Source: Candidatus Omnitrophota bacterium
GTDB lineage: Bacteria > Omnitrophota > Gorgyraeia > VGKN01
Direction of reading: 5' to 3'
DNA length: 64,000 nucleotides
Assembly (NCBI GenBank): GCA_020052955.1
Contig: JAGVOB010000004.1
Coordinates: 12,522 to 76,521 of the forward strand
In this document: positions 1-64,000 of the stretch, one piece after another
Position numbering within the stretch: position 1 is the stretch's first letter
Layout of the letters: the number at the start of each line of letters is the position of its first letter
The notes under the pieces: generated by a model
The model's database searches: none
The model's input: the letters and a program-made list of their open reading frames with translations, nothing else
What the model was told of the DNA's origin: nothing
Translations under genes and position numbers: made by a program

Positions 1-927
1 TATGGTCTAGAGGATATTTTTGAGATTTCATATGATAAACCAAGGCATACTATCACCGTTAGTCTACAAAATGAAAATCCAAAACCTGCTAAAGGCGGCT
101 CGATATTCCTGACGCCAAAGCATCTTCCAAAGGCATTTTTGGAGACCCCAGCAATCTTCCTTATGACATACGGATTGCTGGAGCTCCCGATAGCGGCTAA
201 CCTCTTAGGTATAGCAGGCGTTCCCTATGCGGTTAGTATTGGATACCTAGTTGCTCACGCTATAGGGGTGCTTCTTGACGCGCGCAGGGAAGGCCATAGC
301 GGATGGAAAGAAGCCCTGCAAACACTTAATCCGTTTAACAGGCCGGAGGTGTATATATTAACAATCCTGACAGGTTTTATAGGATATATGGTAGTGGCAT
401 TCGGCTGGGTAAGCCCGATAACATTAAGCGCGATTGCCGTCCTGACAGGTATCCACTGGCTGATTAACAGGTATTTCTACCCCAAAGAGGTGCGCTCATT
501 ATTCGGCAGGCTGGTTGAGATAGAGGCAAGGCTAAAGAATGATATGACTGATGAGGCGCTTAGCCAGATATCCGATATATTTAACGACATAGGCAATGAC
601 AAGGTAAAGACAGAAACGCTGAAGAAACTCCTGATAACGCGTAGCGGCGCCCTAAATGAGACCTTTGAATCAACAAGCAAGATAATGGCATTGGCTTATA
701 TGCTTTATGAAAATAAAACAGATGAAGCTGCTGCATTTGCGCAACAGCACAATTTAGCAGGCCTTGCTGCACAAGATAGTATAAACTCTATAGTAGATGC
801 TATAAGAGATGCATTGAAAGAAAAAACAGGCTTGGCTGCTGTATCATTGCAAGCTACTCCCGATACAACAACGGCTTCCACCACCATAACACTTAAGAAT
901 TTATTGACTGAACTCACCCAGAAGTAA
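1..927 (+). CDS. 3' end of an upstream paralogous giant membrane protein gene (partial, truncated by window start)
   Basis: Reading frame 1 is open from nt 1 through the TAA at 925-927 (the ATG at 139 is internal). Two TM segments are followed by a helical tail ending ...TTITLKNLLTELTQK*, which resembles the C-terminus of the 20,408-aa ORF (...TTIPRTQTLRELLIEFKQL*). The sequence TAACCGTATCATTTTT at and after the stop is identical to that after the giant ORF. Confidence 0.6.
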   Translation, partial: YGLEDIFEISYDKPRHTITVSLQNENPKPAKGGSIFLTPKHLPKAFLETPAIFLMTYGLLELPIAANLLGIAGVPYAVSIGYLVAHAIGVLLDARREGHSGWKEALQTLNPFNRPEVYILTILTGFIGYMVVAFGWVSPITLSAIAVLTGIHWLINRYFYPKEVRSLFGRLVEIEARLKNDMTDEALSQISDIFNDIGNDKVKTETLKKLLITRSGALNETFESTSKIMALAYMLYENKTDEAAAFAQQHNLAGLAAQDSINSIVDAIRDALKEKTGLAAVSLQATPDTTTASTTITLKNLLTELTQK

Positions 928-28300: not shown

Positions 28301-31300
28301 AGTAGACATCGATGGCAATGATCGGATTCCGTTAGGACAGCGTGTTGGCATATCATGGCATTCCATTGAAGATGATCTTTATCATTCTTGGAACTTTTTA
28401 TTAACTGCTTTATATGTTGACGCAAAATCCTTGCCCGAAATAAAAATTGATTTTGAAAACTTTATTCAAAGGTTTCCTGAAAGCTACCGCCATTTAAAAA
28501 ATACTTCATTCGTAGAAGTTTTCACTACTACGATAAAGCTATTATCATATGAAAGGAAAGAAGGCTTTTCTAATGAGACAGGTAGTATGATGATGGGAGA
28601 TCTTCCAATATTGTATAAGTATGTACGAATTTTAAGATTAGATGAGATTGGCATGTTAAATTCTTTTAGTTTTGGCACAGGTGAATTGGGAAAAAGTGAA
28701 GAAAAAACAAAGCTACTGTTTGCTGAGGTTGGGCGGGATATATATCAACAATCTGGAATAATGTTTGTAGATAGAAAAGAATCGTTAATTCCTGAGTCTG
28801 ATGTATTGAAAGATATTAAAACACTAGAAGGTGGCATATCTCTTGAAGAGCATAATGATATATTTGTTATTCAAGAATGGAAGATGTCAGGTGAACCTAC
28901 TATTGAAGAATGGGCTTTCAGCGATCCAAAACATTTTTGGGAAATTGTTGAAAAAATTAGAGTAAACAGCGAACAGGCTACAGAGAAACATGTTAATCTT
29001 GATTTTCCTTTCACTTTAGAAGATGTGCAATTGCGCCTTGAAAATAAAATGCTAAATGTCTCAGATTTTATTACCTATGGGTCGCCATATTTAAAAGAAA
29101 AAATCGCATCTACTACAAAATCAGTGGAGCTACTTGATTTATTAACAGTTGATGCAGATGTTAAATTTGTTGTTATAAACAACCCAAATACTTCACTTGA
29201 GACGTTAATGCGATTATCCTCCGATCCTGATAGAGAAGTGAGAAGATCTATAGCGATCAATACAGCAACTACTCCTGCGATGTTAATAGAGTTGACATCT
29301 GATTCAGAAGCCAATGTTAGGTTTGTCGCTGCTTTTAATGAAAACGCACCGCTTGTTGCCGTTGCTCTCGCAGTTTTTCTGAAATCAGATGAATATATGA
29401 GCCTTAACTATAGCGCCACATATGATAATAGGCCAACAATAGATGAAATGTTTCAAAATCGTTACTTTGGTCTTGGAACTCATATGGTTAAGATATATAA
29501 CCAATGGAATGGAATTTTACCAGGCGAGAGGCTTCCATCTGATCTAATCGAGAAATTAATTCAAGCCGAACCACTCTTTAAACGCGCAGTTGAAGAATTG
29601 CCGGATAAAACCTGGGATGAGGTTCCTATAACAGGAGATATCAATAAGGATGTAACCGCATTAATCAATGCTGTAGAAACAGCACTAAATACCAAAGCAC
29701 AAGCACCCGAACTACCCACCCTAACCTCACAGCTACAACAGCAGCCCCCATACCTTGTAGGCTTTTTGGCAACACCCGGCATGCTTGTATTCCTAACCAG
29801 GATTAGAGACTGGCTAAGAAGGAATAAGAGGAGAGTGATATTAACGCTATCTATATTATCGCCTATTCTATTACTTGCAGGTGCTTATGCAGGAGCGCGT
29901 ATCTATGGAAGTGGCTTCTCTCTTGAACATGCCATTCAACTACCAGCACCAATGCCAACGGTTGAGCAGATAGATGGTAAATGGATTATGAATGGAAGGG
30001 CTGCCTCTGATAAAACCCTTGAGGCAGTTGATATAAAGGCAATTGATACTGCAATTACAGAAGGCAAAGCCGACAGATTATTCTGGGAAGGAATATTCTC
30101 CAATTACCCAAAAGACGTCCCGGTATCTTATCTTATAACACCAGAGCGCATTAAGGCTCTATACGAGACAAAGCAATTAGACCATCTCTTTAACGGCCTA
30201 AGGACACAGCCTGATTTACTATACAGATATTTCTCTGAAATTTCAGAAAGCCAAATGACAGACTTTGCCAGATACTTCGCCACCCTTAAACCCGGTACAA
30301 GACAGCAAGTATTTGACATATTATACCATCGCTTAAGAAACGACCTACTTATCTTAGAGAATTTAGGCACTATAAAACCCGGATATTCTACCTTACTAAC
30401 ACAGTCCAACCGTATGGAAATCCTCTATGCTACAATGACCCAAATGCTAAATAGAATGACTCCATTGCCTGTAGGTGAACTCCCAGACGGCCCTGTTGCT
30501 CCTATGCCTGTTATGGGTCTTACAAGAGAGCGTTCTATAGATAACCTCTACAGAACATTTGAAGAGGTTATCACAGACTATAAAAATCAAGGCTATACCA
30601 TAACACTGCCTACACCTGATAGCGTTAATGTTTCTGAAGTGGTTGGGTTAATTGGATACTACAACAGCCTACCTGATTTTTCTTTGAGAGATAATCAATC
30701 TGCGCAGCTCCTTGAGTGGGTTTTAAAACAGACTGACCCAGAGAATCCATCTGCGCATATGGTAAGTGATAGAGAGCTCTTGATAGAAGCAATGCGATTA
30801 TCCGCTGGGCCAGATAGAACAATAGATTTATTTAAGGTTATAGCGACCATCGGGCATTATTATAAAGCAATGGCTAGAGCCCCATATTTAATCCTCGGTG
30901 GCCCTGAAGCTCGTGCTAATGAAGATGGTCCAACCTTTATAGGCAGACGTCACGACCATATGCTTTTGGTCTACTCTTTAGACCCAAAAGTTGAATATAG
31001 TGTGGATGAAAATGGCCAGCCGGTCTTACGCTGGAGACCAGTGGATGCGGATGGTAATGATTGGATTCCGGAAGGTGAACGTGTTGGAATTAACTGGCAT
31101 GCCATTGATGATAATCTTTATCATTCTTGGAATTTTATTCTCACAAATCTATATATCGAGGCCAAGTCTCTTAAAGAAATCGGTAACGACTGGGAGAGTT
31201 TTTATCAAAGATACCCATCCTCAAATGAATATAAATCTATGAAAAGCACTTCCTTCTTAGATGTTTTTGTTGCGGGTATAAGAATGTTACAAAACCCAGA

Positions 31301-34300
31301 ATCCGCCGGTAAGGTAGGTACTGCAAATGAACAAGATCTCCCATTGTTTAATAAGTATTTACACCTTGCCGGTATAGATGAGTTTTTCTTACGGTACTTT
31401 ACTTTTGGGTTATTTGGATATATAGAACGAGGCGGTAGTGAACCGCTAACTAAAGCAATATTTGCAGAAGTTGGAAGAAGAATCTATCAGAAGACAGCAG
31501 ATGGTGAATCCGACGTAACTTTGGTACAACATCCTGAAATATTAGTTTCTGGCACCTGGAACATTAGAACTATCGGAGGCGGTAGATCGCTTGCAGAGTA
31601 TAACGATAGCATTATAAGAGAATGGAGGGTGTTGGGTAAACCTTCAATTATCAAATGGGCTTCAGATGATCCTGAAAGATTTTGGGAAGTTGTTGCAGCA
31701 ATTGATCAACTTACTCTATTGGCGAAGTTAACAAATGCCAGTATTAACCCTCCTTTTACTGTAGAAAGTGTAATATCGGCTATTGAGGAAGGGACTTTAG
31801 TAAATGAGTATCCCTCATTTAACCATTGGAAGCAAGATATTTTATCTTATCCGCCAGAGGTGCTCGATATATTAGCCTTAGATACTGACCCCGAGGTGCG
31901 AAGAATCGTAGCAGAAGATATAGAAGCTTCACCCAAGGCATTAGGATTTTTAGCCTTGGATTCAGATCGTGAAGTGAGGATATATGTAGCAGCTAATAAG
32001 GGCGGTAATGTTCCGGCTGACGCATTAATGTTGTTGATTAGGGATAAGGATCCTTTGATAAGCGGGCATGCGATATATAATCAAAATACTCCTCTTGCCG
32101 GTCTTGTCCTTGGAATGTCCCTTGTAAGTGATAATAGTCAGATTAAAATTAAAGATATAGAATCCCAATTATCACAAAGATTTAATGGTTTAGGTACTCA
32201 TATATTTATTGTCTATAGCCGGTGGAATGATATTTCGCAGGAACAGGAAATCCCACCAGAAGTAATCAACCAACTTCTTGCGGCCGAACCTCTCTTTAGG
32301 CGCGCAGTTGAAGAATTGCCAGATAAGACCTGGGATGAGGTTCCTATAACGGGGGATATTAATAAGGATGTAACCGCATTAATCAATGCTATTGAAACAG
32401 CATTAAATACCAAAGCACAAATACCTGAGCTACCAGGTTTAGCGCCAACACAGCCCGCTGTACCTGCGCAGTTACCCACCCCCACCTCACAGCTACAACA
32501 GCAGCCCCCATACCTTGCCGGCTTTTTGGCAACACCCGGCATGCTTGTATTCCTTGGCAAAATTAAAGACTGGCTTAGGAGGAATAAAAGGAGAGCGATA
32601 TTAACAGCAACAACCATAGGATTATTACTCTGTTTTGGAGCAGGTGCCACTTATTTTATAGTTAACCGTACGCAACAGCCTGTAGTTACGACAACCTATA
32701 CAATAACAGATCTGGATAGTTTGCTGGTTAAATTAAACAGCACAAACCGCATAGTAAGACAGCAAGCCTCTGAGGAGATAGCGCGGTTAGCATATGATAA
32801 TCCTCAAGAGGCAATAAATATTATTAACAGGCTTGAGAGATGGTCTATAGAGGTTCTAAATACCCCTGATAAAAAATTGAAATGCTATCCTGAACTTTTG
32901 GATGCCATAGTTAAAATCGGAACCCATATATATAGTGATAAGGAACTGGATAGACAAATCACAGAGGCAGCATTCGCAAAGCTCTTAGAGTTCTTTGATA
33001 CTGAGAATGAACAACTTGCAGGGTTTGTCCGTGACGCGATACTCAATTTTGCAAACAGGGTTAATACGCCAGAGGTGTTGAGCAAAACAGTAAAGATTGA
33101 TGTTTTAAGAGGAAATCTTGAGCGTTCAGACAGCGGTCTTAGGGCTATATACAATTTATTGGGGACATCAAAGAATGACAGGGTAAGAGAGATAATTTTA
33201 AAGATGTTAGAAGAACTACCTACAAGAGCACCCATTTTTGACCCGGCACATACAGGAGGTTTGTGGTTTAGGTATCTTTTTGAGGCATTTATGCCCATAA
33301 TTTCAGATGGCAGAAATAAACAGTTAAGCGACCTTGCTGCGAGGGTATTGGTGCAGGTGACAGTATCCCAGATTAAATCTACCGAAACCCATGGTTTTTC
33401 AGAGGGCGATATTTATCTTGTTACAAACGGCTATCTTATAGGAACAGGTCTTCCTGGAGGGATTAGCGATTACAGAAACTTCTTTACACCCATTACAGGT
33501 GAAATTGACCAGGTAAGGGCTAAGGGCGACAAGTTTACAGAACTGAGACTTCTCTGGGTGCTTGAGCAGTTAGGGATAAAAGTTATTATAAGCGGGATAG
33601 AACGAACAGATAATCAGGGAAGGATTATTGCGGAAAACCAGGTTCAGGGATTAGTGGAGTATCTAAATAAAAACTATCCTGCTGATTCAGGTAATTTAAC
33701 CATTACTAAAGTTGTGGCGCATAGAACACTTATTGCAATGACAGGAGGAAGACTTCAGAGATATGTTGAGACAGCGCAGAACCTGCCGGGCGTGTGGGAA
33801 AGAAGAACCGAGTACAACAATCTAACCTCTTCCATTGGAAACTCAATATCAGTGCTTGAACAGGCGTATAATTCCACCGACCCGGTTCTTCATGAATTGG
33901 CAGTGGTATCTATGTTAGATTTGCTTAAGAATGACTTTACCACTCCAAGGGAAGTTTATGAACCGCTGATAAGACTTTTAGTAGAAAAAGCTAATAAGGG
34001 CGATACAGACGCAAGCAAGATATTAATTGCCGTTGTAAGCGATGCAGATATAGGATTTGAAATTGTTGAACCTCTCTTTAGAATCCAGGGCGTAAACATA
34101 GGTGTTAGATCCGGCTTCCAACCTACTGACACATATGTAAGGAGATTTACGAATGAAAGGGTTGATGAAAAGTTGAGAGCCCAGTATGCCCAGATGGCCC
34201 AAGGCGATATTAATTATATAGCGCTGGGCAATTTATTAGAAGTCAAAAATGTGCTTTCAGAACAGGGAGATATTGCCAATGCCTCTGAGAGCTTAACGTT

Positions 34301-43300: not shown

Positions 43301-46300
43301 AAATGAGCTTATCACCCTCCGTACTCCAAAGCCAACTATCTCTGATATAGGGAGGATTACCACTTCTGTAACACCGGCTCCTGCAAGCGACACATCTATT
43401 GTGGTGGATATGGCAAGCGCTGACTGGAACGGCCTTACAAGGCTTATCTCAGATAAGGGGCTTGTGTTTGATAAGGGAACTATTGATTTAAATAAGATAA
43501 TCATTGGGAATTTAAACGGCAATATCTCTGCATTCGGCAGTTATCTCGCAGCAATTGTTTCAGCAAGGGATATGGGGATTATCACTGATGAAGAAGCAAA
43601 AATAAGGATAATGCAGACACTAAATGCGCTCCAGACGCTACCTCGTGATAATAACGGTTTCTTATACTCGTGGTATGATGCCCAGACAGGAAGGCCTCAG
43701 CCCATCACGGGTTATGCAATGGTTGATGGAAAACTCCAGCAGGTTACAGGCTATCACGTCTCCTCTCTTGATAATGGCCTTCTGGATTTGGCTTTAGAGG
43801 GAATAAGAGAAGCCTATAGGGATGACGAAGAAATCACTCCAATTATAGATAGCCTGCTTAGCCATAACTACTCTGCATTCTATGATACAGAGAAGCAGAT
43901 GCTTGGAGTGGGCTATTTTGATGTCCTTGGAAACCTCTATTATGAAACCAGTCACTATAGCACCTGGGGTTCTGAGGCAAGGGCAGTTGTGGTATATGCT
44001 GAGGCAAAGGGCGACATACCCTCCGGCACATTTGCAAATCTTTATTCTAATGTAAAAGGCTATACCACTGAGGCAGGAGAGGAGATTTTAACCACCAGTT
44101 TCTTCCAGGGCTCTGGCCATCAGGTCTTTGTGCCGGAGATATTCTTGGGAGAGAGCAGGATGTCGCCTCAGGCAAGGGCAATTCTGTTAAATTATTCAGC
44201 CATAATGCTGGATAAGGGTGTATTTATCAGCGCAGCAGAAAGCCCGATATGGTATATCGCAGATGCAGGAATCAAAGATGTCAGCGAAAATGATGTTAGG
44301 GAAGACCTGCTTGTTCCCTATGCCATATGGCTTGCCGCTTCTGTTAACCCCCAGGAGATGACAAATAGACTCAACCAGCTAAGACAAGATCATCCCGAGA
44401 TGTTCTCTACCCAATTCGGCTTTGCTGACAGTATGGTTACACAGGATGGTGGTTTAGGAGAAGCAGGCACCGTAACCCGAAAGGTTCTTGCCATTGACCA
44501 CGCCTGGTCTATTATGAGCGCTTATTCTGCCATTGACGAAGACGGCGGATTTAGCAAATATGTCAGGCAGTCAGATATAGGAACAAGAATAGCCACTGTA
44601 TATCAGGGCATAGATAATCAGACTCGCGATGCCGTTCGTCCGAGACAGGTTCCTCATGTTCCTGTAGGTATTATAGCAGGAATTACAATTAGTATCGTTG
44701 GCGTTATTGTAGGAATTGTTCTATTAATCTTAGGTATAAGGCGCTCTAAAGAAAAAGCCCGGCCGCAACCCGAAACAGGCGTTACGCCTACTCCGGAAAC
44801 ACTACCTTCTCAGGAAACGCTGTCATCTCAACCTGAAGCAGCCCCGCAAGTGTCTCAAATGGCTATAATTGGCGGACGCGCACCACCTCTAAGAGATTTA
44901 AGTCTTTCGCCTAAAGAAAGGATAACCCGAGCGCTTGTCCAGCTTACCGATGTTAGCGTAGAAGATATAGATTTTGAAAGCATTGAAGTGGAATACGAAA
45001 CACCAACCGGATTTGTATATATAGTAAAAACAAAAATAACTAAGAAAAAATTCTTTGTTGAGATAGTCAGGCGTTATGACAGGGATAAGGCTCCGTTTAA
45101 AGTTACTGTCAATGACAAAGAAATTCCATTTGCAGAAGGCGAGTATATCAAGGTCGCAGATGGTAAGAGAAAGGTATTAGGCTTATATTATAACTTAAGC
45201 GCTATAAAAGGATTTAGCCCGAGTAGCGAAGACGCCACTAGAATTCGAGAAAGAGAAGAAAGGTATTATAATAATGTTTTAGGGTTTGTCCAGGAAATCG
45301 CCTCTAATCCCCAAAGCGTTCCCAGATATATTATAAATCTTGAGGGTATAAATACAGAAAAAAGCGAGTTAAGAAATAAGATAGGCCTTCTTAATCAGAA
45401 TATAGCAACCCTCCCGGAAGGATATAGAGCAGAGATAACCAATACTACTCCTAACGAAGAATTACCAATTCAACTTACTCTTTTACCCACCTCTCAACAA
45501 ACAGCAAGACAGATTTCAGAGGATGAATTAGATGCTATAAGAGTTAAAACCAAAGAGGCAGAATTAGCTGAGGCTGGAAAATTAGTCTCCCAGACAGTTA
45601 CACAAACAAAGCCTGTTCCATCCGAAATAAGAGGGTTCTTTAACAAAATCGGCGCTATCCTAAAAGGTGAGTATTTCTATAATGGCGCGGATTTAACAAA
45701 GGCAACTGCTCCATTTTATTACTTAAAGGTGGTAAAGAAGGTTAATGAAAAGGGTGAAGCAGTAGATGAAACAGAGTTTCAGAAATGGGCTTTAGTAAGG
45801 GATATAGCCCTTGTCTCAATACTCGGAATAATAATTGCATCAGTTTCTATTTTAGGAATATACACAATTCCGACTATACTTGCTGTAGGTTTAGTCACTG
45901 GTTTTGGACTAATTGTTAAAGGAATTCAGGCAAGGTATGAAAAGGGGTTTAAGATAGGCCTTATTGTCAGTGCATTTAGTTTTATATCTTTATTTGTCGC
46001 ACCCCTTTTAGCCCTTTCTATAACAGGCATCATTATAGGTTTTGCAAGTATTTCTGGGTATGGTTTTGGTAAATGGATTTTAAAACAAAAGGCAGAGACT
46101 CCCATAATAGGTATTATAGCTTTGCCAATTTCACTTCTTGGCATAGTTGCTGGTTTGGGAATAATCTCTGTCTTTGCCATTAATGTTGCTGTTGCTTTTG
46201 TAGCTTTTGCCTATGGCATATATAAATGGAGAAAAGAAGAGGATATCTCTGCAGTTGTAAAGCCCTTTGCAATTTCTGTTTTTATGCTCTCCCTTTTACC

Positions 46301-49300: not shown

Positions 49301-52300
49301 CACAACCATTATTTTAAATGCAAACCTTATCACTCTAAGCCTGGTTGTCATTAAGCAGGCAACGCTAAATCTAAAGAGTAAACTTGCCGGCATAAAACAG
49401 GCGTTTGCATGGACGCCTCAGGCAGATGTAGATAAACCAGAAGAATTTATGGAGGCAATCTATGGGCACGTCTCTGTTCTCAAAGCTGGTTTTATAATTT
49501 TATCTTTAATAGCTTTTCTCTCGTTTGGTATGACCCATTCAGCCAGCTGGATGGTTTTAGCGCTTCCGCAGGTTCTTGCATTTACGCTAAGTCCTATCTT
49601 TATGTGGCTTACCTCCCAGAGGCCAAGCACCTCTCTTAAGATTGCCTGGTTCGGTGTTATCCCGAGCATGGTTATGACAGGGCTCATTATGAAGATGATT
49701 AGTATTGGCGCGCCACTGATGCTTACACCCGGGGGTCCGATATGGACGGTGTCGGTAGCGGTCATTATGATAATAGGCGCAGCGCTTGGTGCTATTGCAG
49801 GCTATACCATCAGAAAGGGCCAGCTTATAAAAAGGAAAAAGGAGCAAAATATCCCTGTGCCGCCCATATGGTCTCCTAAAAACTTTAGAGATGTATTATT
49901 TTCAGTATCAAGGGGAAGTGTATTGTTTCCGGTATTAAAAGGTCTTGCCGGAGGGGTTTTAATTACTGCCTCAGCAATATTTACTGGTCCCTATACAGAG
50001 ATTACTACTCTTTATCCATTTGCTGTAGGCGCTATTATGGGAGCGATTATCAGCAGTGTTTTGATAAATGCCGGTTTTAGTCGGCAGAAAGATGAAGAAA
50101 AGAAAAAACTTAAAGTAGGTATTGAAAAATTTTCTGAACTTAATTCAACAGAGCAGAACATTGTCCATATGATTTATATCCTTCGCTGTATTAAGCCCGA
50201 CAGTGAGGCATTAAGGCTTTATGAATACACAGCACAAGGTTATGGTTTGAAGGTCCCAAGACTTGATAACGTATTAGAAGAATTTGACAGAGAATTTGCA
50301 GGATTGGATCCGAGACTGCTTGAAATTGCTAAAAAAGTTTATGAACTCCAGAAGACCTCACCCGATGATAAACCAGCCTTAAAGTATTATACAGAGTTAG
50401 CGAGGCGTAACGGATTATATGAAGAAAAACTTGAAAGAATTCTGGCAAGATTAGAGGGAATAGAAAAAGGTATAACCTCTACGCCTACTCTAACAGCCCA
50501 ACCAGAGCAGGCGATTACGCCAACCACACCAGCAGTTACTATAAAGCAGAGATTATCCTTGCTATTACCTAAATTGTTAAACCGCAAAGCAGTAATTATT
50601 ATGGGTATAGTTTTACTACTTGGCATAGTTACTATTTTAGCAGGTTTGATAATCTTACCAACGATGCAAATACCAACGGCTACGCAAGTGGTTGAAACTA
50701 TAACCAGAACTATTTCACAGATAACCCAGACAGCCACCGAAGTTGTAAATACCCTTACCCCAACTCCTACTACAACTCCAACGCCAGGCGTAACTCCTGC
50801 GCCATCTGCTACGCCCTTACCAGTAAGCCCTGCGCCAACAGTTACAGGAGCACCAGTAGCAGAGGCAACTCAAGCGGTAAATTTGATGATGTGGTTAATA
50901 GGCGGAGGTATTTTAGGTTTTATTGCATTAACCGCTCTCGGTGTTAGATTATATCTTCAAAGAAAAGTTTCGCAAAAACAAGCAATTGTAGCACAGGTTG
51001 CTCCTACCCCTCAACCTGCTTTATTTACTGCACCGCCTTCTGAATTTGAGGAAGCCCTGGAAGAAGCAAGAAATGCCGGCGTTTTGGAAGGAGAGCTTAT
51101 AGCAGTTGCTACAGTTGCGGATGTCAGGGCTCTTATAATTGTGCGCCAAGAGGCTGTAGCGCGTGCCAATAGGGCAGGCGTAATAACAGACCTCACAGGC
51201 ATTACCACAGCCGGTATCAATGGACTCGCTGAGTTTAAGGAAACTATATCCGAAGCGAAAGCCATAGGCGTTACAGAAGGAGAACTTAAGACAGCCAATA
51301 TCTCAGATGAAGTTAGAACCCTTATTACAGCCCGCCAGCAAGCAATTGAACGTGCCCAAAAAGCCAGCTTAACCATAGACTTCACTGGTATGACTGCAGC
51401 CGATATAAATAAACTCGCTGAGTTTGAAGAAGTTAAGGTTGAAGCAAGAACCGCAGGTGTTACTGACGCAGAAATCAATATAGTTGAAACTACACAGGCA
51501 CTTAGGACTCTTATTGCTTCTCGCCAAAACGCTGTTAGCCGTGCTGAAAAAGTGGGGTTAGAAACAGAAGAACTTAAAGAAAAACCTATAGCCGAGGCAA
51601 TAAAATTAGTTGAAAAAGCAGAAACCTTTACTTCGGTAACAGGGCTTTCTGTTCCAAAAGCGGAGTCTTCATACCGTCCGCTTATTAATCTTCCAAAAGA
51701 AGAATTAACAGAAAGGGCTAAAGCGTTAAGAGAGACTAACCTACCTGTTAAAGGATATTTATTAAGGTATAAATCAGAAACTATAAGGAATAAAGAAGCA
51801 ATAACTGAAGATTATGCCCAACCATTTAATTCTAGCACTGTCAGGATGAGCGAAGATAGAATTAAGGAGAGGTTTGAAAATGAGGTATCAAGAATTGCTA
51901 AATGGACTATCCCTCTGTTAAAGATGAAACTGAAAGAGGGCTCTGAGAATCATATGCGCTTGACAAGATACCTTGAGAGGCTTAGAGAATTAAAAGCCGC
52001 CCAGCCTGAATTATTTAAAAATACCTTAACGCAATCAGGATTAGATAATATCTACTTATTAAGAGAAGTTCTCTCTAAGAAATCTACCGCTACAGTCCAA
52101 TCTATGCTTGCCAACTTATTCACCTATGAGTTTGGCGGAAGGTATATGTGGCTAAACTGGATTACGAGGGTAATAGGGCTTCCTGCAATAATAGTTGAGG
52201 AACTTTCTCATTTTATTATGCATATATTTGCAAGACTCGGCATACCAAGAGTAAAAATATCCACTAAACTTTTGGGCATAGAGATAAGCGAAAGAGCACC

Positions 52301-55300
52301 TCCTATTGTTAAACTCATTGGCCCTGCATCTAATATCCTTCTTCTCATTGCCTCCATATTCCTTTATCTTCACACCGACCCCTCCACCCTAACTACAGGT
52401 TTATTTATCTGGTCAATATCTGCCTCAATACTTAGCATACTTACCGCAATATATGATTCTGCTAAATTCCAGACAGGGGATATTTACGAAGCGAGAGTAA
52501 GCTTTTTAATAGAAAGGTTGAAAAATTCTGATCGGGGTGTTTGTGCTAATGCTGCAATAGCTTTGGGTCAAATAGGCGACCCAAGAGCAGTTCCAGCTCT
52601 AATAGAAGCCTTAAAAGATAGAGATTGGTATGTCCGCTCCTGTGCCGCAACAGCCTTAGGCCAGATTGGTGACCCAAGAGTTCTATCAGCACTCAGGAGT
52701 TTACTTTTGCATACAAGCCCAATGGTGACATATACATATGAAGAAATAGAAACGCAATTTAGAGAGGGCTGGTTTGGATACTCTGGAGATTGGATATCGA
52801 TAGAAGTAATAAAAGAAGGAACAAAGTCCAATCCCGAATATACAGCTATTGAACAAGCAATAGCAGCTATTGAAGCTCGGATGGGAGAATTGCCAACCGG
52901 AACAGGTGTGGCAGGAAAGAATGCCCTTGCAGCCGCCGAATCATCCTTAGCCAATATCTTCTCCTATGCCTTTGGCGGAAGGTTTGCAAAGTTAAACTGG
53001 TTGCCACGACTAATATACCTTCCTTTTATGCTACTGCTGGATGAAGTTTTGCATATTAGCACTCATTTAGCCACAGGCTTTGGCATGCCTGAGTTTATAT
53101 GGAATACCAAATTTTTCGGCGTAAAGATAAACCCGAGGGCGCCGCCTATTGTAAAACTGATAAGTCCTATCATTCATATCCTGCTTATACCTGCCTCAAT
53201 CTTCTTATATTCCTTAGTAAAAGACCCAGCCGCTATACATACAGCACTGCTTATCTGGTCGCTCTCATTCTCAATATTAAGCCTATCTGCAAGCATACTC
53301 AGCAATATTAAATACAAGACAGGGGATTTATACTTAACTGCCCCCGCAATTGGCGGTGCCCTTGGCATCTGGAAGGACATTGGCTTAAAAGCCGAAGACC
53401 TAGCTAGTATAGGGTTTATGGAGGGTGCATTCTTTGGAAGCCTGTTGCTTTATAATATGTGGCTAGGCAATGTTTTTAAAATGATTGAGACAGGTTTTGG
53501 CACATTAAATATTACTCAACTCTCCACAGGTTTGTTTGCAGTCCCTGGCTCCCTATTTCTTTTTACAGGTATTATATTTATTGCCTACCTTCTCTTAGGT
53601 ATATTGTTTCCTTCTGAAGGAGTCTCCACAATAAAGAACGCGGGCCTCAAGACACATTTCTTGAGAGCACTAAATGCTACAGGCGTAGCTATGTCAGGCG
53701 TTTCTCTTGCAGGCGTACTCGCTTTATCCTTATCGCTGGCAGGCTTGCCAATTGGCGTCTCAGTTATTGTCGGAGTATTAACAGGGGCAGTTTTACATTC
53801 CTGGCTTAACTGGCAGGCCTACAGCAGAACCATCAAAGACAAGGCAAAGACTTCAGGCATCTTAACAACCCGTTCTATAAGCATTGGAATCTCATCAGGA
53901 CTTCTGATAGTGTTTACCAGCCTGTGTCTTAGCCTATTATCGTCAAAATTTGGATATTTAACCCCAGAATTTTTCACGCTTCCGATACCAGGTTTTTCTT
54001 ATATTATAAACGTTGGCCTTATGCTTTTAGATGTACCCAACAGATTCTTCTGGGTCCTTGGCAGCATGCCATTTCTTATATGGACGTTGGAGTCGTTTTT
54101 TAGAAAAGGGATATATAAAAGCCTTAAAAGAGGTAAATTCCTTCCTTCAACAGGTCGTTCAAGTTATTTTACGTTAAATGTAATACAGGCGCTTCTTTTT
54201 GCATCTTTTTCCGTCCCCTTTATGTATTTTTCATCCGCTGGAGCTATTCCATTGCTCATAGTATTTTTCTTCACAGGGCTTATGTATGGATTTATCTATG
54301 ATAGAGCGGGCATAACAGGTTCAATAAACGCCCATCTTGTCGTCAGTATTTTCGCGCTGCTTGGCACTGATAGTATGCTATCTTTTACAGTGCTCTTCGG
54401 GCTATTATTGGGGGTCAATATAACATTGTGGCTCATCTATTGGTTATTAATGCGGCCCTTGGCTGGACAGTTACCGCGAGAAGGGCATATAAAAACCGCT
54501 GAACCTTATCCGCATTTCTGGCAGGAATTAAACCTGATTATTCCAGAGTTTCATATTTCCCATGAGGCAATAAATGGCTGTGATTTCATACCTGCCGAAG
54601 AGGTCTTTAAGGAACATAATCGATTGATTTGGTATGAACATTCAGCTGAAAAGCCACAATTTGTATTTGATATTGAGGGCTTGGTTGAACCAGTAGAGAG
54701 AATACTCAAGTTAGAGAAGAGGATAATTAGCTTGCATGAATTGCAACTGGTTGATTCAGAAGAGGAGGCCCGCACGCTTTTACCGATAGCTATTCTTATA
54801 CTTGAATTGGAACGGGCGCAACTGCATCGGCTTATCAAGATTCAGCCAAAGGCAGATAATACACCCGTTGTATGTATGGAAATGATTCTCGCATTCTTCG
54901 CGGTTAGGCGTTTTCTGCTCTTCCCAAAATATGTTCGCCAGCAGATGATTGAATTTTATAAAAAGCGCGATGCAAATTTTGCAGATGTTCTTACCACCGC
55001 TGACCGGGCAATAGAGAAAAGTTATAACAAATTAACTCTTGCAGAAGGGCAAGAACTAGCATTGATGCGCGCTACTGGCATAAAGGTTAGCGATGATAAG
55101 GAAACAGTGCCAAACCTTATTGACTATAGCATATGGCTTAGCAGACAGGCGGGTGTTAGTCTATACCAAGATGACATTGAACGTGTAAAAAGTTTTGTTA
55201 GGAAGTTTTTAGCCGACAGGCTCAACACATACGGCTTCTCTGGCATGTCAAGGCAAAAGGTTATAGAGGATATAATCAGGCTTTGGCATGAGGAAGGTAA

Positions 55301-58300
55301 GGTAAGGATAGAAAAGGAGGATGAGCGTTCTCTTGAAGCCTTGATGGACTCTCTCATCCAACCCCACAGAGAAGAATTTAAACCTCTTGTTGAGCAATAC
55401 TGGGCTACTGAGGATAGTAAAAAACGGCAATCTTTGGAAACACGAATAAACGCCATAATGGATACCATAAACGTATACAAAGGCACAGAAGCATCTGAGC
55501 TTGAACTGGCTGATGTTCTGTCTTTGGATGAGTTCTTAGAAACCCCATATGCCCAAAGATACATAGAACTTGCAAAACATGCACTTCTATTTGGGCAGTA
55601 TATCCCGGAGTTTATATTTGCAGGTGCGGCAACAAGGCTTAATAAAAATTTAGAAGATTTAGGCTTACCTTCTACCGGTCCTATGTATCCATTAGATATC
55701 TGGAGTATTGCCGAAGAAGAAAAGATAGGTCTTATACCACCCAGCGGAGCACGCTTAAGACTTGGGATGGGGCCAAGACAGATTATCGCCTATAGGAGAT
55801 ACTTAGAGAACTTAGCCAGAGAGCAGGGTGTTAGTCCAAAGACAGTCCTTAAAAACCAAAGACTCGTCATCCATATAAACGATGAGATATTTGATATGGT
55901 CTTAGATGATTTTATCAAAAACGACTTTTATGGATTTAGTCCAGATAAGGTGTTCTTCATCAATGTAGACCTAAAATCAGGATATCTCCTTACTGAAGAG
56001 GGAAAACTCACCCCATCCAAAGATAGCCCAAAATTGCCCTATGGTCATGGCTATGCAAGTATGCAGATGGTAAAACCAGGCCTTGCCTTTACCATTGATA
56101 TATCGCAGCAATCTACAGATAGAAATAAACAACTCCGTTATCTTAAAGGAGATATGCTTAGTTATCTTATAGACCATGATGCGGCTTTAATTGGCACACA
56201 CAGGTTAAATGACCTAACCAAATTCACTCCAACTCAGGTTGTGGACATAGAAAAACTTGCCTTTGGTATGTATCTCATTGAACAAGGAAATGAGGTGATA
56301 GTGGATTCAGTTGAGAATCCGGAAAACCAGAAAGGCGGCCAGCTATTACAGAATAAGGATACAAGGAAGAAATTTCTTATAGAAGTTTCCAATTTTAGAG
56401 GAAGCCCGGGGCTTGATTCGTTGATTAAAAGAGGCGTAAATGTGCCATACAATGCCTTTAGACTCTTATATGACCTTAAAGCAGCAAAGAGGCTTCTTTT
56501 TCAGGGGATTTCTTATAATGTAAGATTTAAGGATGGTTACTTCTATTTAGAATCTGTAACAGGAGATGTTACCCAGCTTATAGATGCCAAAGTTGCAGGT
56601 ATTAAAAGACAAGGTGAGCTAATCCACGACTTCAAAGAACTCGATAATCTTAACGACGCACTTACATTCTTAGGGCAAAGCGATGAAGAGATTAGGGTTG
56701 GCAAACTGATAGAGTTTTTTGAAGAGGACGCGGTTAAGAAAATAATAAAGCGTCTTGGTGGAATGGAAGGAAGAGCAGTTATTCTTATAGGAGGAACTCC
56801 AGGCGCAGGCCTCAAATATTTTGCAAATGTAATACTTAATGAACTTGGAAAGAGAAATAGGCGCGCTAACATCCTTTCTGCTTATAATTATTATAAAGAC
56901 TGGACAGAGATGCCACACAGGAAAGATGGTACCCTTGATTTTGAATCGCCTCATAGCCTTGATATAGAGTTGTTGAGGTCACACGTTAAAGAACTGCTTA
57001 AAGGTAATACTGTGCAGATTCCTCAATATGACTTTACAGAAGGCAGAAGAACAGATATGACAACCAGCATAAGGCTTGAGGAGGGCGAGGTGTTGATTCT
57101 TGAGGCTATTCATGGTTTAAGCGATGAATTTTTAGCAATGGCAGAAGGTGTGCCTGTGGTTAAAGTGTTTGTTGATTCAGATGAAAACATTCGGCTCCTT
57201 CGCAGGATGGGTGAATATGCAAGTGAAAGAAAAATAGACCCTATAGTAACCATAGAAAGATGGGATCGGGTTAAAGAGGCCGAGGTTTCCTTTGCGAACC
57301 CCACAAGGCAGAAAGCAGAACTTGTTGTTAACACAGGAGATGTTGTGGAATTTAGGAAAAATGAAGTTTCCAAGATGCTTCCTGTTTTAAATAGTGCCTT
57401 GAACAGGGCTTTACAAGAGAACAAACACAGCGTTGCTGATAAGATTAAAGAACTCCAGCGATTCTTAAGCAGTCTGCCTATTGAGTCGATGGATAAATTA
57501 ATTAAGGCTGCAAGGTCAAAACTGGCTATGCACAAGAAACCGGTAGTTATTGCTATAGATGGCATACATGGAGTTGGAAAGACAAGCACTGCAGAATTAC
57601 TCGCAGGAATCATAGACGGAATTTACATATCCCTTGGCGAGATATACCGTGTGGTTACCTGGCTTGGGTTAGAATACGGTTTAGATATCCATAATCCAGA
57701 AGATATCGCAAAACTTAGAGGATTTTTATCGCAGATAACGACTCTTGAAAAAGACTATCACGTTAGGTTCATATGCGTCAAGGACGATGCACCTTTAGAC
57801 ATTACCGAAGAACTGTACACAGAGCGAATCAGCAAAAATGTGTCTGATTTTGCAGAATATATTCATAATGAAGTAATAGAGTTTTCTAGGGAAATTGTGG
57901 GAGCCCTCAAGAAAAGAGGTAAAAACGTGATAATTGAAGGACGGATTGCAGGCACTCACATCGCACCCGACGCCGATGCAAAAGTCTTCCTAAACGCAGA
58001 TTATATTACAACAGCCTCAAGAAGGGTAGAACAATATATACAAGAAGCCGATATCTCTGGGGAACCTATGATTTTCAAGACCTCATGGGAAAGGCTTATT
58101 GCAAAACTTAAGAAAGTATATTTTGAGGTATTTGGTCCTATGAGCGAAGAGGATTTTGAACACAGACTTACATTATATGGCTACGAGGGCCTAAAAAATG
58201 AATTACTGGCTGAAATAAACTTACGACTTAAAGCAAGAGACGAAAGAGACGAAAATCATATCGAACAATATATGCCCCCCGTAGATGCCAAAGTGACCCA

Positions 58301-61300
58301 GGATATAATAAGAGTTGACACAACTGAGCTAAATATAAATCTTGTTGCAGAACTTATACTGGAACTTTTGACAGATGTATTTGCAAAAAGAGTCTCCGGT
58401 CTTAGTCCGCCATTTAAAAAATTTGACAACTTCCTTGAATATTACAATTACCTGGTAGATGAGAGAATGCATTTTGCCCAAGAGCAGGGCTGGATTAAGA
58501 AAATAAATTGGCAGATTGAAGAAGCGGCAATGGATTATACGGGAAGACCGGCTCAGATAGAAGTTACAGGAGAATCAGCAGAAGGCCGTTCACAGGAAGC
58601 AAGAAAGATTTTAAGGTGGATATTCAAAACAAGTCAAACACGCTATGACTTTATAGAATATTTGAGGCATTATCAGGTAGGCCATACCTCGCGCAATAGG
58701 CTTACTCCGTTATATGTAGCAGTGTATAACTATCTTTCCGAAAGGCCGCTTAACGATAGAAGGGTTATGGATGAAAATCCCGGCCTATTTATAGATAATC
58801 TTACAATTAAAAGCCATCCCTGGTATGGAGATTATGATTTGGCTAAAGAAGGTTTTGAGCCTAAAGAAGATATTACTCTTCCTGTTCCTCAAAAAAGGAA
58901 GATAAGAATACTGCTTATTGGACATGCTGAGAAATTCGGACATCCAGAAACATCCTCAAGCACGCTGTTAAGGGAGATACTTAGCAGGCTCCCCGCAGAT
59001 AAATATGAGATTGAGATTGTAGCCAATGACGTTATTTATCAGGAAGTAATCCACGATTTTTCTGGGGATGGTTCTTATCAACGCAGGATAGGCTATCAAT
59101 TTGAGCAGGATGGCGAATTCTACGATACAGAGAAAGGCGTTAAGTTTGTAAAACTTGATATAAATAACCCTCGTCAAAATCTATTAAGCGAGGATTTTCA
59201 GCCAGATGGCAAGTATGATATTGTTATTAACTCAAGGCTCGCCGTTCAATATGGTGAATACGAGGAAAAAGTAAGCCAAATCAGAAAAAATTCTATGCAA
59301 TATTTAGCCGAAGGAGGAATTTTATTTTTTGATACAGAAACCACAGACCGCGCGGAAGTTATCCGGTTACAAGACGGAGTGTTCGTAGTACAAGAAAGGG
59401 TTATACCTTATCTTGATATATGGGCATATACGAAGAAGATAAAGCGGATTGTATTAGATGATAAAGGTACTCAGAGGGTAACAGATAAGCATAGAGATTT
59501 AATAGAAAGAGCATTTAGGCTGGCCGAAAGATATGCTGATATAAATACACCTATGTATGACAAGGCAGTAGTGGCAGACCTCTTGAGAAGGATAGACGAA
59601 GATTATCTTTTTATGCTCGCGGTTTTACTCTCAGGCGTCTCTATAGAAAAGATAAAAAAGCATTTTGACCCTGATATAGTTGAAAGACTTATCGCGATGA
59701 GAAAACATATGAAAGAGATTACGCCTGAGCCAGCTTCCCGTGTCGGGGAGTTTAATATCTTGCGCTCGAAATCCTGGTTTAATATCTCATTGGAAGGGCA
59801 AGCTATAGAAGACCTGAGACTTATCTATTCAGATGGAATATATGAAATTTACTTAGGCAGAATAGACAAAAGAGAGGTATTGTTAATAGATAAAAGATAT
59901 AAAGGTAAGTTTATAAGAAGAGCATTGTCAATTGAAGAACCTCGGTATACAGAAGACGAACAGATATTTAAAAAAGCTGTTGCTTATTATCTAGAATATG
60001 CATATCGGGAAGTTGGCGAGAGTGTTTTATCCAGTGCCCATAGAGCATGGCGCTTATACAATTCTTATAACTTGTCCGATAGAAGGCCAGGCCCATGGTC
60101 TAATACGTGGTTAAGATTTTATGTTGCAGCAGTTATTCTCCATCGTCTTAAAGTAGAATTGTATAATGATATTTTAAATATACTCTCACGGCTTGATAGC
60201 GGTCAGGCCGTAGATATCGCTAAAGAAACAAGAACTCTCTCGCAAAAGCATAAGCTGGCACAAGAAGAAATAGAAGAATTACAGGAGATGATTGTCTACG
60301 CCTTCAATCCCCAAAAAATTATGCATAGGATAAATACTAAAACATCGAGAAGAATGCTTAACAATTTATTTAACCGCATGAGCAAACCCAAAGGAAAATT
60401 TTCTAGTAAACAAAAAGAAGAGATTATGCGGCTTTTCCCTGCGCTTAATCAATTCTCCCCGGAGGCGTTAAATCATGTTATGAGAGTAATAGAATCTATA
60501 AGCAGGCTTGCTAAGGGGGATATCAAATACTTCGAAGATGGTCTTAGCGCTGAAGATAAAGCACTTATGGCAGAGGAAGGTCTTGAGCGCTATAGAGCAC
60601 ACATACAGGAACTTCATATGAGATATCGTAATCTTATGCAGACCAATCCAAGCAATAAGACAATATTATGGCTGGCAGTTATTTTTCATGATATTGGTTA
60701 TACCATATCCGGAAGTCATAGTCATAACCACCAGAGATTAGGAGTAGATATAGCAAGAAAGGCTTTAAGTGAGCTTGGGTATTTTGAAGAAGAAATCGAG
60801 TTAATTACCAAATTGATAGAAAATCATACAGCCACAGGAGAAGTCTCAATCGGAGAAAGGTCAGCGCGTTCGGCGTTAAAGATTCTTGAGGTAGAGGATG
60901 TGGATAGGCAACAAGATTTTGCCAATATGCTGTTAGTCCTTAACTCAATGGATCTGGCAGGATATGAGGAAGCAAGAAATAGGCTTAATCTGTTCTGGGT
61001 TGAAAGATATGTAGGTAACTCAAATATCGGTAGATTGAAAAATAAAGACTCCGATACTGAAAATTATATTGATAGATTAGAAAGGCTTACCTGCAGCCAT
61101 ATTATGGAAAAAGATAACCCGCAAAAACGCCAAATGATACACTCTGCAGTAGATAGTCTTATTGCATCGGATGAAATAGGATTATTCAAACGTCATTTTA
61201 ATAGCACGCTCGAAGTTCTTTTTATACTTCCTATTGTATTTTATTTGGCAGGAAATGACCCAACCTATAGGAGTTCAGTTAAGTTATTCCGCTTCTTGAC

Positions 61301-63081: not shown

Positions 63082-64000
63082 ATGATAGACTGGCAGACAG
63101 GTAATCACAAGTTCTGGTTAAAACTTATAACCTTGGTTATAGCCGAGGTGTTTTTATTTACCTCAATAGACCTTCCTTTATCAAAGCCCGATATCGCCCA
63201 CGCCTCTCCAACTGAAAAATTAGCGCCGCCGTTAGTCACAGGCGGTCAATCCGATAAAGCCCCTATTAGAAAAGCAAGGCGAGTTGCCGGAGAAGACACA
63301 TTACAAACTGCCGCACAAGACCTGCCGATAGTTGTTGAGGGAGATAATCTATTTAAAGCAATAGATAAAGCAGTTAAGCACATCTCTCAAGATGACATAG
63401 CGCAGAGTGGAAATAAAGACAATATCCCCGCCCTACTCTTAAATATCAATAACAGGTGGGTCCTTTTGTTGTTAAATACCTTAACAAGAGACAATATACC
63501 GCAAAACGTATTGGATATGTTGGGCTCTGAGATAGTAGAGCGCCTGATAGAAAGCGGTATGGAGCAGCCTGCAAGAGCAGACCTATCTACTGCGGATGCA
63601 CCAGGCATGCAAATAAGCCAGGCTGTTTTAGGCGATGGCCGCTTATCGTTGAAATTAGACGAAAGAGGAGCTATCTTATTATCCGGAGAAGATGATAACA
63701 GATTAACCCTTGTTGATTTACAGGTAGATATGGAGAAGGTGCCTGATTGGCTGAGGCCGCCTCAACAAGGCCCTCCCGTCGCTGTCTCCACGTCTGCCAT
63801 TTCAGTTCAGTTTAGATTTGTAAATCTTAATCTGTCCGCATCTGAAAGCACAGTAGAAACAGCAGAAGTAGCACCAGCTACACCCCTACAAGCAAGGCCA
63901 GCTAGCGCAGCGGAACTCAAGCGCGCCGAAGAAGCCCTCAAGCAAGCCCAAGCAGCAGCTATTCCAGTAACAGTTACAGCACACCCGGCAATACAAATTC
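63082..64000 (+). CDS. 5' end of a downstream paralogous giant-protein gene (partial, runs off the window end)
   Basis: ATG at 63082 is preceded by AAAGGG (63068-63073) with the same 8-nt spacing as the giant ORF. N-terminus MIDWQTGNHKFWLKLITLVIAEVFLFTSIDLPL is nearly identical to MVDWQTGGKKMWIRLIALVIAEVFLFTSIDLPF of the giant ORF. The frame stays open to nt 64000 with no stop (checked codon by codon). Confidence 0.7.
   Translation, partial: MIDWQTGNHKFWLKLITLVIAEVFLFTSIDLPLSKPDIAHASPTEKLAPPLVTGGQSDKAPIRKARRVAGEDTLQTAAQDLPIVVEGDNLFKAIDKAVKHISQDDIAQSGNKDNIPALLLNINNRWVLLLLNTLTRDNIPQNVLDMLGSEIVERLIESGMEQPARADLSTADAPGMQISQAVLGDGRLSLKLDERGAILLSGEDDNRLTLVDLQVDMEKVPDWLRPPQQGPPVAVSTSAISVQFRFVNLNLSASESTVETAEVAPATPLQARPASAAELKRAEEALKQAQAAAIPVTVTAHPAIQI

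Follow-up and report, generated by a model that had tools for sequence, protein, structure and literature searches.

The window analysed here, meaning the whole stretch of 64,000 nucleotides (nt) taken from a contig of a Candidatus Omnitrophota bacterium, is almost filled by one open reading frame (ORF) on the + strand, nt 1359-62585, with 20,408 codons. The last ~2,500 residues of the encoded protein, which would be an "Archaeovorin-like" multi-pass membrane protein, would make up a single soluble region that most likely lies in the cytoplasm. Five modules follow each other in this region: a nucleoside diphosphate (NDP)-sugar-pyrophosphorylase fold, a uridine-kinase (Udk)-like domain that appears to be a pseudokinase, a cytidylate-kinase (Cmk)-like domain, a module with a predicted CheR-like fold and an HD phosphohydrolase module. 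We give roughly a 0.5 probability to the reading that this block is a cytoplasmic, membrane-tethered array which makes, recycles or senses (d)NMP, NDP and NTP (nucleoside mono-, di- and triphosphates) together with NDP-sugars. Its modules would be drawn from a pool shuffled among Omnitrophota large and giant proteins, a pool which, as found in relatives, would resemble a line from nucleoside to NMP, NDP, NTP, NDP-sugar and finally glycosyltransferase. The array would thereby supply the sugar-polymer chemistry attributed to Omnitrophota giant proteins.

The features on which this rests are as follows.

nt 1359-62585, + strand: giant ORF carrying the block, 20,408 amino acids (aa), a single ORF without an in-frame stop
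nt 54453-61931, + strand (aa ~17699-20191): soluble stretch free of transmembrane helices that holds all modules, from hydropathy
nt 55317-56696, + strand (aa 17987-18446): UDP-sugar-pyrophosphorylase-fold module, from AlphaFold2 (AF2) and Foldseek
nt 56742-57425, + strand (aa 18462-18689): uridine-kinase-like domain, predicted pseudokinase, PF00485
nt 57513-58391, + strand (aa 18719-19011): cytidylate-kinase-like NMP-kinase domain with an insertion, PF02224
nt 58386-59870, + strand (aa 19010-19504): module M, with an N-terminal helical part, a predicted CheR-like class-I methyltransferase fold and a helical and beta tail
nt 60378-61577, + strand (aa 19674-20073): HD phosphohydrolase module, PF01966, with the Pfam HD core at nt 60627-60848
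nt 61716-62063, + strand: C-terminal boundary of the block, comprising the motif HEGLH (nt 61716-61730) and a transmembrane hairpin (aa 20192-20235), from sequence, hydropathy and charge; Pfam reports no match in this region

An earlier note, made from the letters of the window alone, had proposed a run of four enzyme domains at nt 55590-60900. All four domain types do lie in one chain in the order it gave, three being recognised by Pfam and the pyrophosphorylase by its fold (AF2 and Foldseek); the start it gave, nt 55590, falls in the reading frame, and the sequence contains the motifs it quoted. The location overlaps with that found here, the block itself spanning about nt 55317-61577. That note overlooked module M, the conserved region of ~500 aa between the Cmk-like and HD domains. 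When the C-terminal 2,861 aa were searched with the Pfam models it named, PF00485, PF02224 and PF01966 scored above their gathering cut-offs and PF01704 (UDPGP) was unmatched.

The UDP-sugar-pyrophosphorylase-fold module

The first module belongs to a family that came to light when a database was queried with the entire block: 26 proteins were returned, all aligning only to aa 17984-18447. Their named sources are nearly all Omnitrophota/Omnitrophica, with one labelled Endomicrobia. An alignment of 16 sequences has 34 invariant columns, among them G18089 and R18093 (AGAATRL), H18230-G (PYGHG), N18284-D18285, K18325-G-G, E18342 and D18424/K18426, and the motifs AGAATRL, PYGHG, RLNDL, QKGG and HDFK, invariant in the family, are all present. 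Because the giant protein's copy keeps every family-invariant residue, the module is probably active or at least ligand-binding.

An AF2 model built from the 16-sequence alignment reached a pLDDT of 92.1 and a pTM of 0.91. In a Foldseek search of the PDB with this model each of the 50 best matches (probability 1.00, E 8.5e-18 to 5e-16) was a UDP-sugar, UDP-glucose or UDP-GlcNAc pyrophosphorylase, with template-modelling (TM) scores of 0.50-0.59 over 440-510 columns. The model contains the three parts expected of the fold, namely an N-terminal helical part, a Rossmann-like nucleotidyltransferase core and a C-terminal part. At the level of sequence the 16-sequence profile matched the PDB weakly, with all eight matches (E 0.017-0.09) being UDP-GlcNAc pyrophosphorylases. 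PF01704 was unmatched in the 16 family members when these were scanned singly at E<=1, and only the distant relative P0026 bears a precomputed match to it. On the strength of the model, the assignment would hold at the level of fold and not at that of the Pfam model.

Compared with the eukaryotic-type UDP-sugar, UDP-glucose and UDP-GlcNAc pyrophosphorylases (USP, UGP and UAP/AGX; PF01704), the likeness lies in the predicted fold of the whole domain, with TM scores of 0.55-0.59 over 440-510 columns. Hidden Markov model (HMM) alignment pairs the module's P-x-G-H-G with PNGHG of the PDB entry 3oc9. The pairing with NxD reaches only the first residues and runs through P0026, where the start of R-I-N-D is placed against G-N-I-D of Trypanosoma brucei UAP; as a bridge to the PDB UAP sequences P0026 provides one short alignment, E 0.11. 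The module differs from these enzymes in its low identity (11-16%), in the missing PF01704 match, in a loop that reads AGAATRL and not GGxGTRLG, and in its setting within multi-domain proteins, where it is often duplicated. The canonical loop, GGxGTRLG, contains an Arg and a Lys, and the other motifs of these enzymes are PxG(H/N)G, NxD, KxGG and a C-terminal Lys. We take AGAATRL to be one residue shorter than the canonical loop, and the counterparts of NxD, KxGG and the C-terminal Lys are likewise presumed, serving as a lead and not as a test. Among the 26 matches, the module occurs with phosphoglucomutase/phosphomannomutase (PGM/PMM) in six, and it is also found with hexokinase, with glycosyltransferase (GT) domains of the glycogen-synthase type (GT5/GT1) and with GT2.

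The uridine-kinase-like domain

The second module matches PF00485 (PRK) at E 7.1e-18, with 65.6 bits against a cut-off of 22, and matches Udk of Thermus thermophilus (E 5e-16) and human UCK2 (E 5e-15) in the PDB. It scores below the NCBIfam equivalog thresholds of TIGR00235 (117.9 against 180) and NF004018 (99.8 against 220.3). With Udk/UCK2 and the bacterial "nucleoside kinase" family of ~550 aa, all of PF00485, it shares the fold and most core motifs over ~185 residues, with 29-34% identity to the best matches.

It differs from them at the catalytic positions. The Walker A consensus GxxxxGK[ST] is not retained, the sequence being GGTPGAGLKY (nt 56790-56819) where T. thermophilus Udk has GGTASGKTT, so that in the HMMER alignment Lys becomes Leu and Thr becomes Lys. 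The catalytic Asp, found in "QDSFY" of UCK2 and "MDHYY" of the T. thermophilus enzyme, is replaced by Tyr in AYNYY (SAYNYYKD, nt 56877-56900); we take the aligned Asp to be the catalytic base, Asp62 of UCK2. The lid motif RRxxRD reads RRMGEY (nt 57201-57218), its RD having become EY. All three motifs (GxxxxGK[ST], the Asp in "D.YY" and RRxxRD) are kept in 21/21 relatives aligned with MAFFT, 15 of them embedded in larger multi-domain proteins of 452-7,252 aa and six standalone, and HMMER, aligning the domain with the T. thermophilus enzyme and with human UCK2, shows the same losses. Since three catalytic positions have been lost independently, the domain is, as judged from these residues, a pseudokinase, without catalytic function in this copy, and may act as a scaffold or ligand-binding domain.

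The cytidylate-kinase-like domain

The Cmk-like domain matches PF02224 at E 4.7e-25 (89 bits against a cut-off of 26) and Cmk structures in the PDB at E 1e-14, and falls below the TIGR00017 equivalog threshold of NCBIfam (86.6 against 135.55 bits). Compared with solved Cmk structures it has an intact P-loop (IDGIHGVGKTS), the YR arginine in GEIYRV, EGR, and TASRR in the place of RAxRR. Its likeness to bacterial Cmk thus extends over the P-loop, the YR and EGR arginines, RAxRR and an RDxxD lid. It differs by the exchange of the GRD Asp for Ile, by the absence of the lid arginine expected after RDxxD, by the sub-equivalog score and by an insertion of ~45-60 aa after RAxRR, which is common to this domain and a subfamily from large proteins. 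In that subfamily the GRD Asp is commonly exchanged, reading Val, Thr or Ile in 7/8 aligned copies and Gln in one. We attribute roles in cytosine/CMP binding to the GRD Asp and the lid Arg, by analogy with E. coli Cmk structures. The domain may still be a kinase, and its substrate is probably not canonical CMP.

Module M and the HD module

Module M emerged when 1.84 billion representatives were searched exhaustively with HMMER, the query being the segment from the Udk-like domain to the residues before the HD domain. The best matches (E 1e-97 to 1e-30) were not to the kinases; they aligned to aa ~19006-19510 and sit in proteins of 574-7,768 aa. The giant protein's copy keeps every residue that is invariant in this family. 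The predicted structure shows a class-I methyltransferase fold closest in kind to CheR, a class-I methyltransferase with an N-terminal helical domain, with ~180/505 residues aligning at 14-19% identity. The module differs from CheR in the region of motif I (G[SH]AEK in the family, IGHAEK here), in having no significant match to a Pfam methyltransferase and in its additional helical and beta-sheet parts. A recognisable S-adenosylmethionine-binding motif or family HMM was not found; the copy in the giant protein matches no Pfam family and other members reach methyltransferase models only at E 0.06-0.2.

The HD module matches PF01966 at E 1.3e-6 (29.2 bits against a cut-off of 22), with weak NCBIfam matches to the HD region of GlnD. 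A module of ~380 aa is common to the large proteins P0045, P0046, P0051, P0056 and P0068. Across six copies H19706, H19777-D19778, H19791, H19823 and D19865 are invariant, so that the H..HD..H..H..D signature is intact, and the profile matches the HD hydrolase 2pq7 (E 0.005) with HD..H..H aligned.

Several weaker resemblances were set aside. The helical part of module M resembles the N-terminus of the RelA/SpoT HD domain at E 0.45-0.55 only, so that it is not read as a pseudo-HD, and single-sequence PDB matches to tetracycline halogenase (E 0.02) and Ap4A hydrolase (E 0.08), obtained with the region between Cmk and HD and with the HD region, are likewise at chance level. A word-indexed homologue search with the M and HD region returned no matches.

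Topology of the block

Hydropathy was traced with a Kyte-Doolittle scan, which gave 117 peaks above threshold in the giant protein, many of them overlapping, and predicts dozens of candidate transmembrane helices. The last cluster of these before the block ends at aa ~17696 and the next convincing helices form the hairpin at aa 20192-20235. No convincing hydrophobic span occurs at aa 17696-20192, leaving a stretch of ~2,490 aa free of transmembrane helices. On the charge map, a loop at aa 17578-17604 with seven Lys/Arg residues is succeeded by four hydrophobic spans and then the block. The residues past the last of these spans, RPLAGQLPREGHIK, are net positive, and Lys/Arg residues stand on both flanks of the hairpin behind the block. 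Because of the positive-inside rule, this pattern of Lys/Arg around the flanking helices points to a cytoplasmic position of the block and the C-terminal tail, a placement consistent with the need of P-loop kinases for ATP. Directly upstream of the block the helix count is ambiguous and could be 3 or 4. The earlier suggestion that the protein must present both cytoplasmic and extracytoplasmic faces is plausible, given the dozens of predicted helices along with SecY and SecA_DEAD domains, with the cytoplasmic face being itself a prediction.

Recurrence in other large proteins

The distribution of the modules was mapped by BLAST and home-made HMMs. Each occurs once in the giant protein, and they recur in other large proteins in shuffled order and varied combinations:

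P0045, 3,827 aa: Cmk, HD, M
P0046, 7,252 aa: M, HD, Udk
P0051, 4,741 aa: Cmk, HD, Udk, nucleoside-diphosphate kinase (NDK), methyltransferase, Udk, phosphoenolpyruvate (PEP)-utilising domain
P0054, 2,097 aa: Cmk, Udk
P0055, 3,447 aa: guanylate kinase, GT20 (trehalose-6-P-synthase type), Cmk, Udk, GT4/GT1
P0068, 4,775 aa: HD, Cmk, Udk
P0056, 7,768 aa: M, HD

Pfam content was obtained for P0045, P0051, P0054 and P0055 and for two further relatives, P0047 and P0052. In P0052 module M is accompanied by a histidine kinase together with PAS and receiver domains. Names were sought for ten relatives and are attached to five; four of the names give the organism, in every case Candidatus Omnitrophota, and the fifth is that of P0047 (JGI), in which module M is joined to a region named NTP pyrophosphatase. 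The content of P0051, P0055 and P0047 suggests a wider theme of nucleotide metabolism in Omnitrophota large proteins.

A supply of nucleotides or nucleotide-sugars, as proposed in the earlier note, gains from these relatives, in which Udk, Cmk and HD stand beside NDK, guanylate kinase and GT20/GT4/GT1, and from the recurrence of the UDPGP-fold module with phosphoglucomutase, hexokinase and glycogen-synthase domains. Nucleoside salvage, the other half of that proposal, could not begin at the Udk-like domain of this protein, which is predicted to be dead.

Relation to described giant proteins

Giant and large proteins of Omnitrophota have been described with embedded glycolytic enzymes, PGM, PPDK, NUDIX, methyltransferases, HD domains and "kinase/phosphotransferase clusters" (10.1101/2023.11.21.568195; 10.64898/2026.06.07.730766). 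The present protein shares the huge ORF and the many transmembrane helices with both the Archaeovorin-type proteins (10.1101/2023.11.21.568195) and the "multi-enzyme metabolic cluster" class (10.64898/2026.06.07.730766). In common with the Archaeovorin type it has a divergent SecA DEAD domain (E 3e-9, aa 1471-1650), HEAT repeats, embedded cytoplasmic-type enzymes, methyltransferase folds and HD domains, and the named relatives of every block module are almost all Omnitrophota. With 20,408 aa it falls short of the "giant" Archaeovorin class (>=30,000 aa) and counts as "large" by the definition of West-Roberts et al. (2023). Archaeovorins typically contain methyltransferases, peptidases, glycosyltransferases, glycosyl hydrolases and NUDIX. 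Neither glycosyltransferases nor NUDIX are among the Pfam matches of the giant protein at E<=0.001; a predicted methyltransferase fold (module M), DUF3131 and HExxH motifs are present. A further difference is the embedded SecY, which West-Roberts et al. mention only within a separately encoded SecYEG channel.

Uridine kinase, cytidylate kinase and sugar pyrophosphorylase are absent from the main texts of both studies (10.1101/2023.11.21.568195; 10.64898/2026.06.07.730766), and a full-text literature search returned no paper tying Udk, Cmk or sugar pyrophosphorylase to Omnitrophota giant proteins. The embedding of metabolic enzymes in these proteins is thus already published; what is new is the recurrent pyrimidine/NDP-sugar set, the two unannotated families and the pseudokinase.

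Function of the block and alternative readings

A number of observations weigh against a cytoplasmic array that handles nucleotides and NDP-sugars. With the Udk-like domain dead, nucleoside salvage cannot start here, its first step being missing. In the Cmk-like domain the P-loop is kept, but the NMP-site Asp is gone, EGRD reading EGRI, and so is the lid Arg: the lid reads RDERDENHIEQYMP where relatives have R.HMP, and most relatives do possess this arginine. PF01704 is unmatched in the C-terminal 2,861 aa at E<=0.1, and in the loop AGAATRL of the UDPGP-fold module nothing invariant appears to take the place of the canonical lysine. Furthermore, NDK, PGM and glycosyltransferase domains were undetected across the giant protein (Pfam, E<=0.001), and the full pathway appears only when relatives are pooled. 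Close relatives of the Udk-Cmk segment were absent from the databases searched. The topology of the block has hydropathy and the positive-inside rule as its sole basis, and topology predictions for such proteins have been judged unreliable by West-Roberts et al. (10.1101/2023.11.21.568195). What the analysis shows directly is which domains are present and in what order, the state of their catalytic residues and their recurrence in relatives; the cytoplasmic location, the enzymatic activities, the substrates and the tie to glycosyltransfer are inferred. With the first kinase dead and downstream partners absent, the block may cooperate with enzymes encoded elsewhere, or part of its role may be that of a nucleotide sensor or scaffold.

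Carried further, this last possibility becomes a regulatory or sensory array, in which (pseudo)enzymes bind cytoplasmic nucleotides or UDP-sugars and, with the CheR-like fold and HD, regulate the giant protein's activity or its export. We hold this to be possible, at about half the likelihood of the array for nucleotide and NDP-sugar handling. The Udk-like pseudokinase and the remodelled NMP site of the Cmk-like domain would suit it, as would the CheR-like nature of module M, a signalling methyltransferase fold, and its union with PAS, histidine-kinase and receiver domains in P0052; methyltransferase, HATPase, GNAT, HAD and HD domains have also been grouped as a signal-transduction/regulatory module in giant proteins (10.64898/2026.06.07.730766). 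The relatives speak for metabolism instead, since their Udk- and Cmk-like motifs are fully catalytic and adjoin NDK and guanylate kinase, like a working phosphorylation chain, and PGM and hexokinase are found alongside the UDPGP-fold module.

A more ambitious version of the metabolic reading envisages that in giant membrane proteins of Omnitrophota a single polypeptide carries an entire pyrimidine assembly line, tethered to the membrane. Nucleoside kinase, NMP kinase, NDP kinase, NDP-sugar pyrophosphorylase and glycosyltransferase would act in turn, and the HD hydrolase and CheR-like module would be its controls. This version we regard as doubtful.

The block might also be evolutionary debris, its domains accreted by shuffling among giant genes and now drifting without a particular role here. 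The three independent catalytic losses in the Udk-like domain would be expected under such drift, giant ORFs are poorly conserved (Seymour et al., PMC10066038), and close homologues of the Udk-Cmk segment were not found: a word-indexed protein search returned only standalone nucleoside kinases of 25-33% identity, and searches of genome and metagenome contig collections only ordinary uridine kinases of 23-35% identity. We consider it unlikely, given a reading frame open across 61 kb, the retention of every family-invariant residue in the UDPGP-fold, M and HD modules, confident AF2 models and the intact Cmk P-loop.

Less probable still is an outward-facing block that processes prey nucleotides or UDP-sugars, for example by UDP-sugar pyrophosphorolysis and HD dephosphorylation before uptake. 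The ambiguous number of helices upstream (3 or 4) leaves room for it, and glycolytic and PGM domains of Archaeovorins have been predicted to be extracellular, with substrate pre-processing outside the cell discussed; the same authors, however, suspect that such extracellular predictions are artefacts of missed helices (West-Roberts et al., 10.1101/2023.11.21.568195). The Lys/Arg-rich residues that flank the bounding helices also argue against it, as does the presence of P-loop kinases. Such kinases require ATP, which is unavailable outside the cell.

That separate genes were joined by misassembly or annotation is very improbable. Nothing was found that speaks for it, and against it stand 20,408 codons free of stops, GC content (0.38-0.46) and GC skew that show no break at the block boundaries in a scan of the window, and the recurrence of the same modules in further large proteins that were assembled independently and, where named, come from Omnitrophota.

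As to biological purpose, the thought that the organism feeds on prey-derived pyrimidines found no direct support and stays speculative. Nucleotide biosynthesis is encoded by >75% of Omnitrophota species genomes (PMC10066038), so that these bacteria need not depend on pyrimidines from prey.

Other features of the giant protein and neighbouring ORFs

Outside the block, a Pfam scan at E<=0.001 recognised SecY, SecA_DEAD, HEAT/LRV and DUF3131. The embedded SecY domain occupies aa 879-1187 (nt 3993-4919, + strand, E 4e-36) and is followed by the SecA_DEAD-like domain (aa 1471-1650, nt 5769-6308, + strand, E 3e-9). The DUF3131 match (aa ~14059-14156, nt 43533-43826, + strand, E 7e-8) lies between transmembrane helices and may be a glycan-active domain. 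At aa ~5440-5560 (nt ~17680-18040, + strand) motifs resembling those of lytic transglycosylases are seen by eye (MMEIASRD, FGIGQIRIDTA, GFGYNGIG); they fit the "envelope-degrading modules" of the earlier note, and Pfam reports no lytic-transglycosylase match there at E<=0.001.

A large internal repeat covers nt ~26900-32700 (+ strand), where a helix, VILTLSILSPILLLAGAYA, recurs with long flanks at aa ~8530 and ~9493; one flank reads TSQLQQQPPYL.GFLATPGMLVFL.RI.DWLR.NKRR. With a third, more diverged copy at aa ~10413, this indicates tandem duplication of a unit of ~960 aa. Another membrane module, with the pattern "..LNW..R....[ED]E..H....H.." followed by hydrophobic helices, occurs three times, at aa ~16955-17035, ~17230-17315 and ~20100-20240 (nt ~52200-53320 and 61650-62063 in the window, + strand). 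HEAT repeats (aa ~17048-17120) separate its first two copies, and the third has a true HExxH, the HEGLH at nt 61716-61730. It looks like an intramembrane zinc-protease-like unit and has no Pfam match.

Downstream, an AT-rich spacer of ~500 nt precedes a second ORF (nt 63082-64000, + strand) that leaves the window at its right end. It begins MIDWQTGNHKFWLKLITLVIAEVFLFTSIDLPLSKPDIAHASPTEKLAPP and its start is clearly paralogous to the N-terminus of the giant ORF, MVDWQTGGKKMWIRLIALVIAEVFLFTSIDLPFSNSNAYASPQEKLVPP; it is probably a second large or giant gene in tandem with the same signal-anchor. Upstream, an ORF at nt 1-927 (+ strand; listed as 139-927) stays open as far as the window reaches on the left and encodes a small hydrophobic protein.

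Significance

What giant Omnitrophota proteins do is for the most part not known, and the greater share of their sequence carries no annotation. The block provides a concrete, testable biochemical theme, the handling of pyrimidine nucleotides and NDP-sugars, which recurs across several such proteins. It also demonstrates that a Pfam name alone can mislead, as the "uridine kinase" here is, by its residues, a pseudokinase. Were the complete assembly line real, nucleosides and sugars derived from prey or the environment would be channelled into or out of surface polymers, with the pseudokinase gating or scaffolding the line in this protein, and both module M and the UDPGP-fold module would stand for new, lifestyle-specific enzyme families. 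Two widespread unannotated modules are in any case defined, one divergent, with a predicted UDPGP fold missed by Pfam, and one of ~500 aa that is CheR-like, and their profiles could annotate many large proteins.

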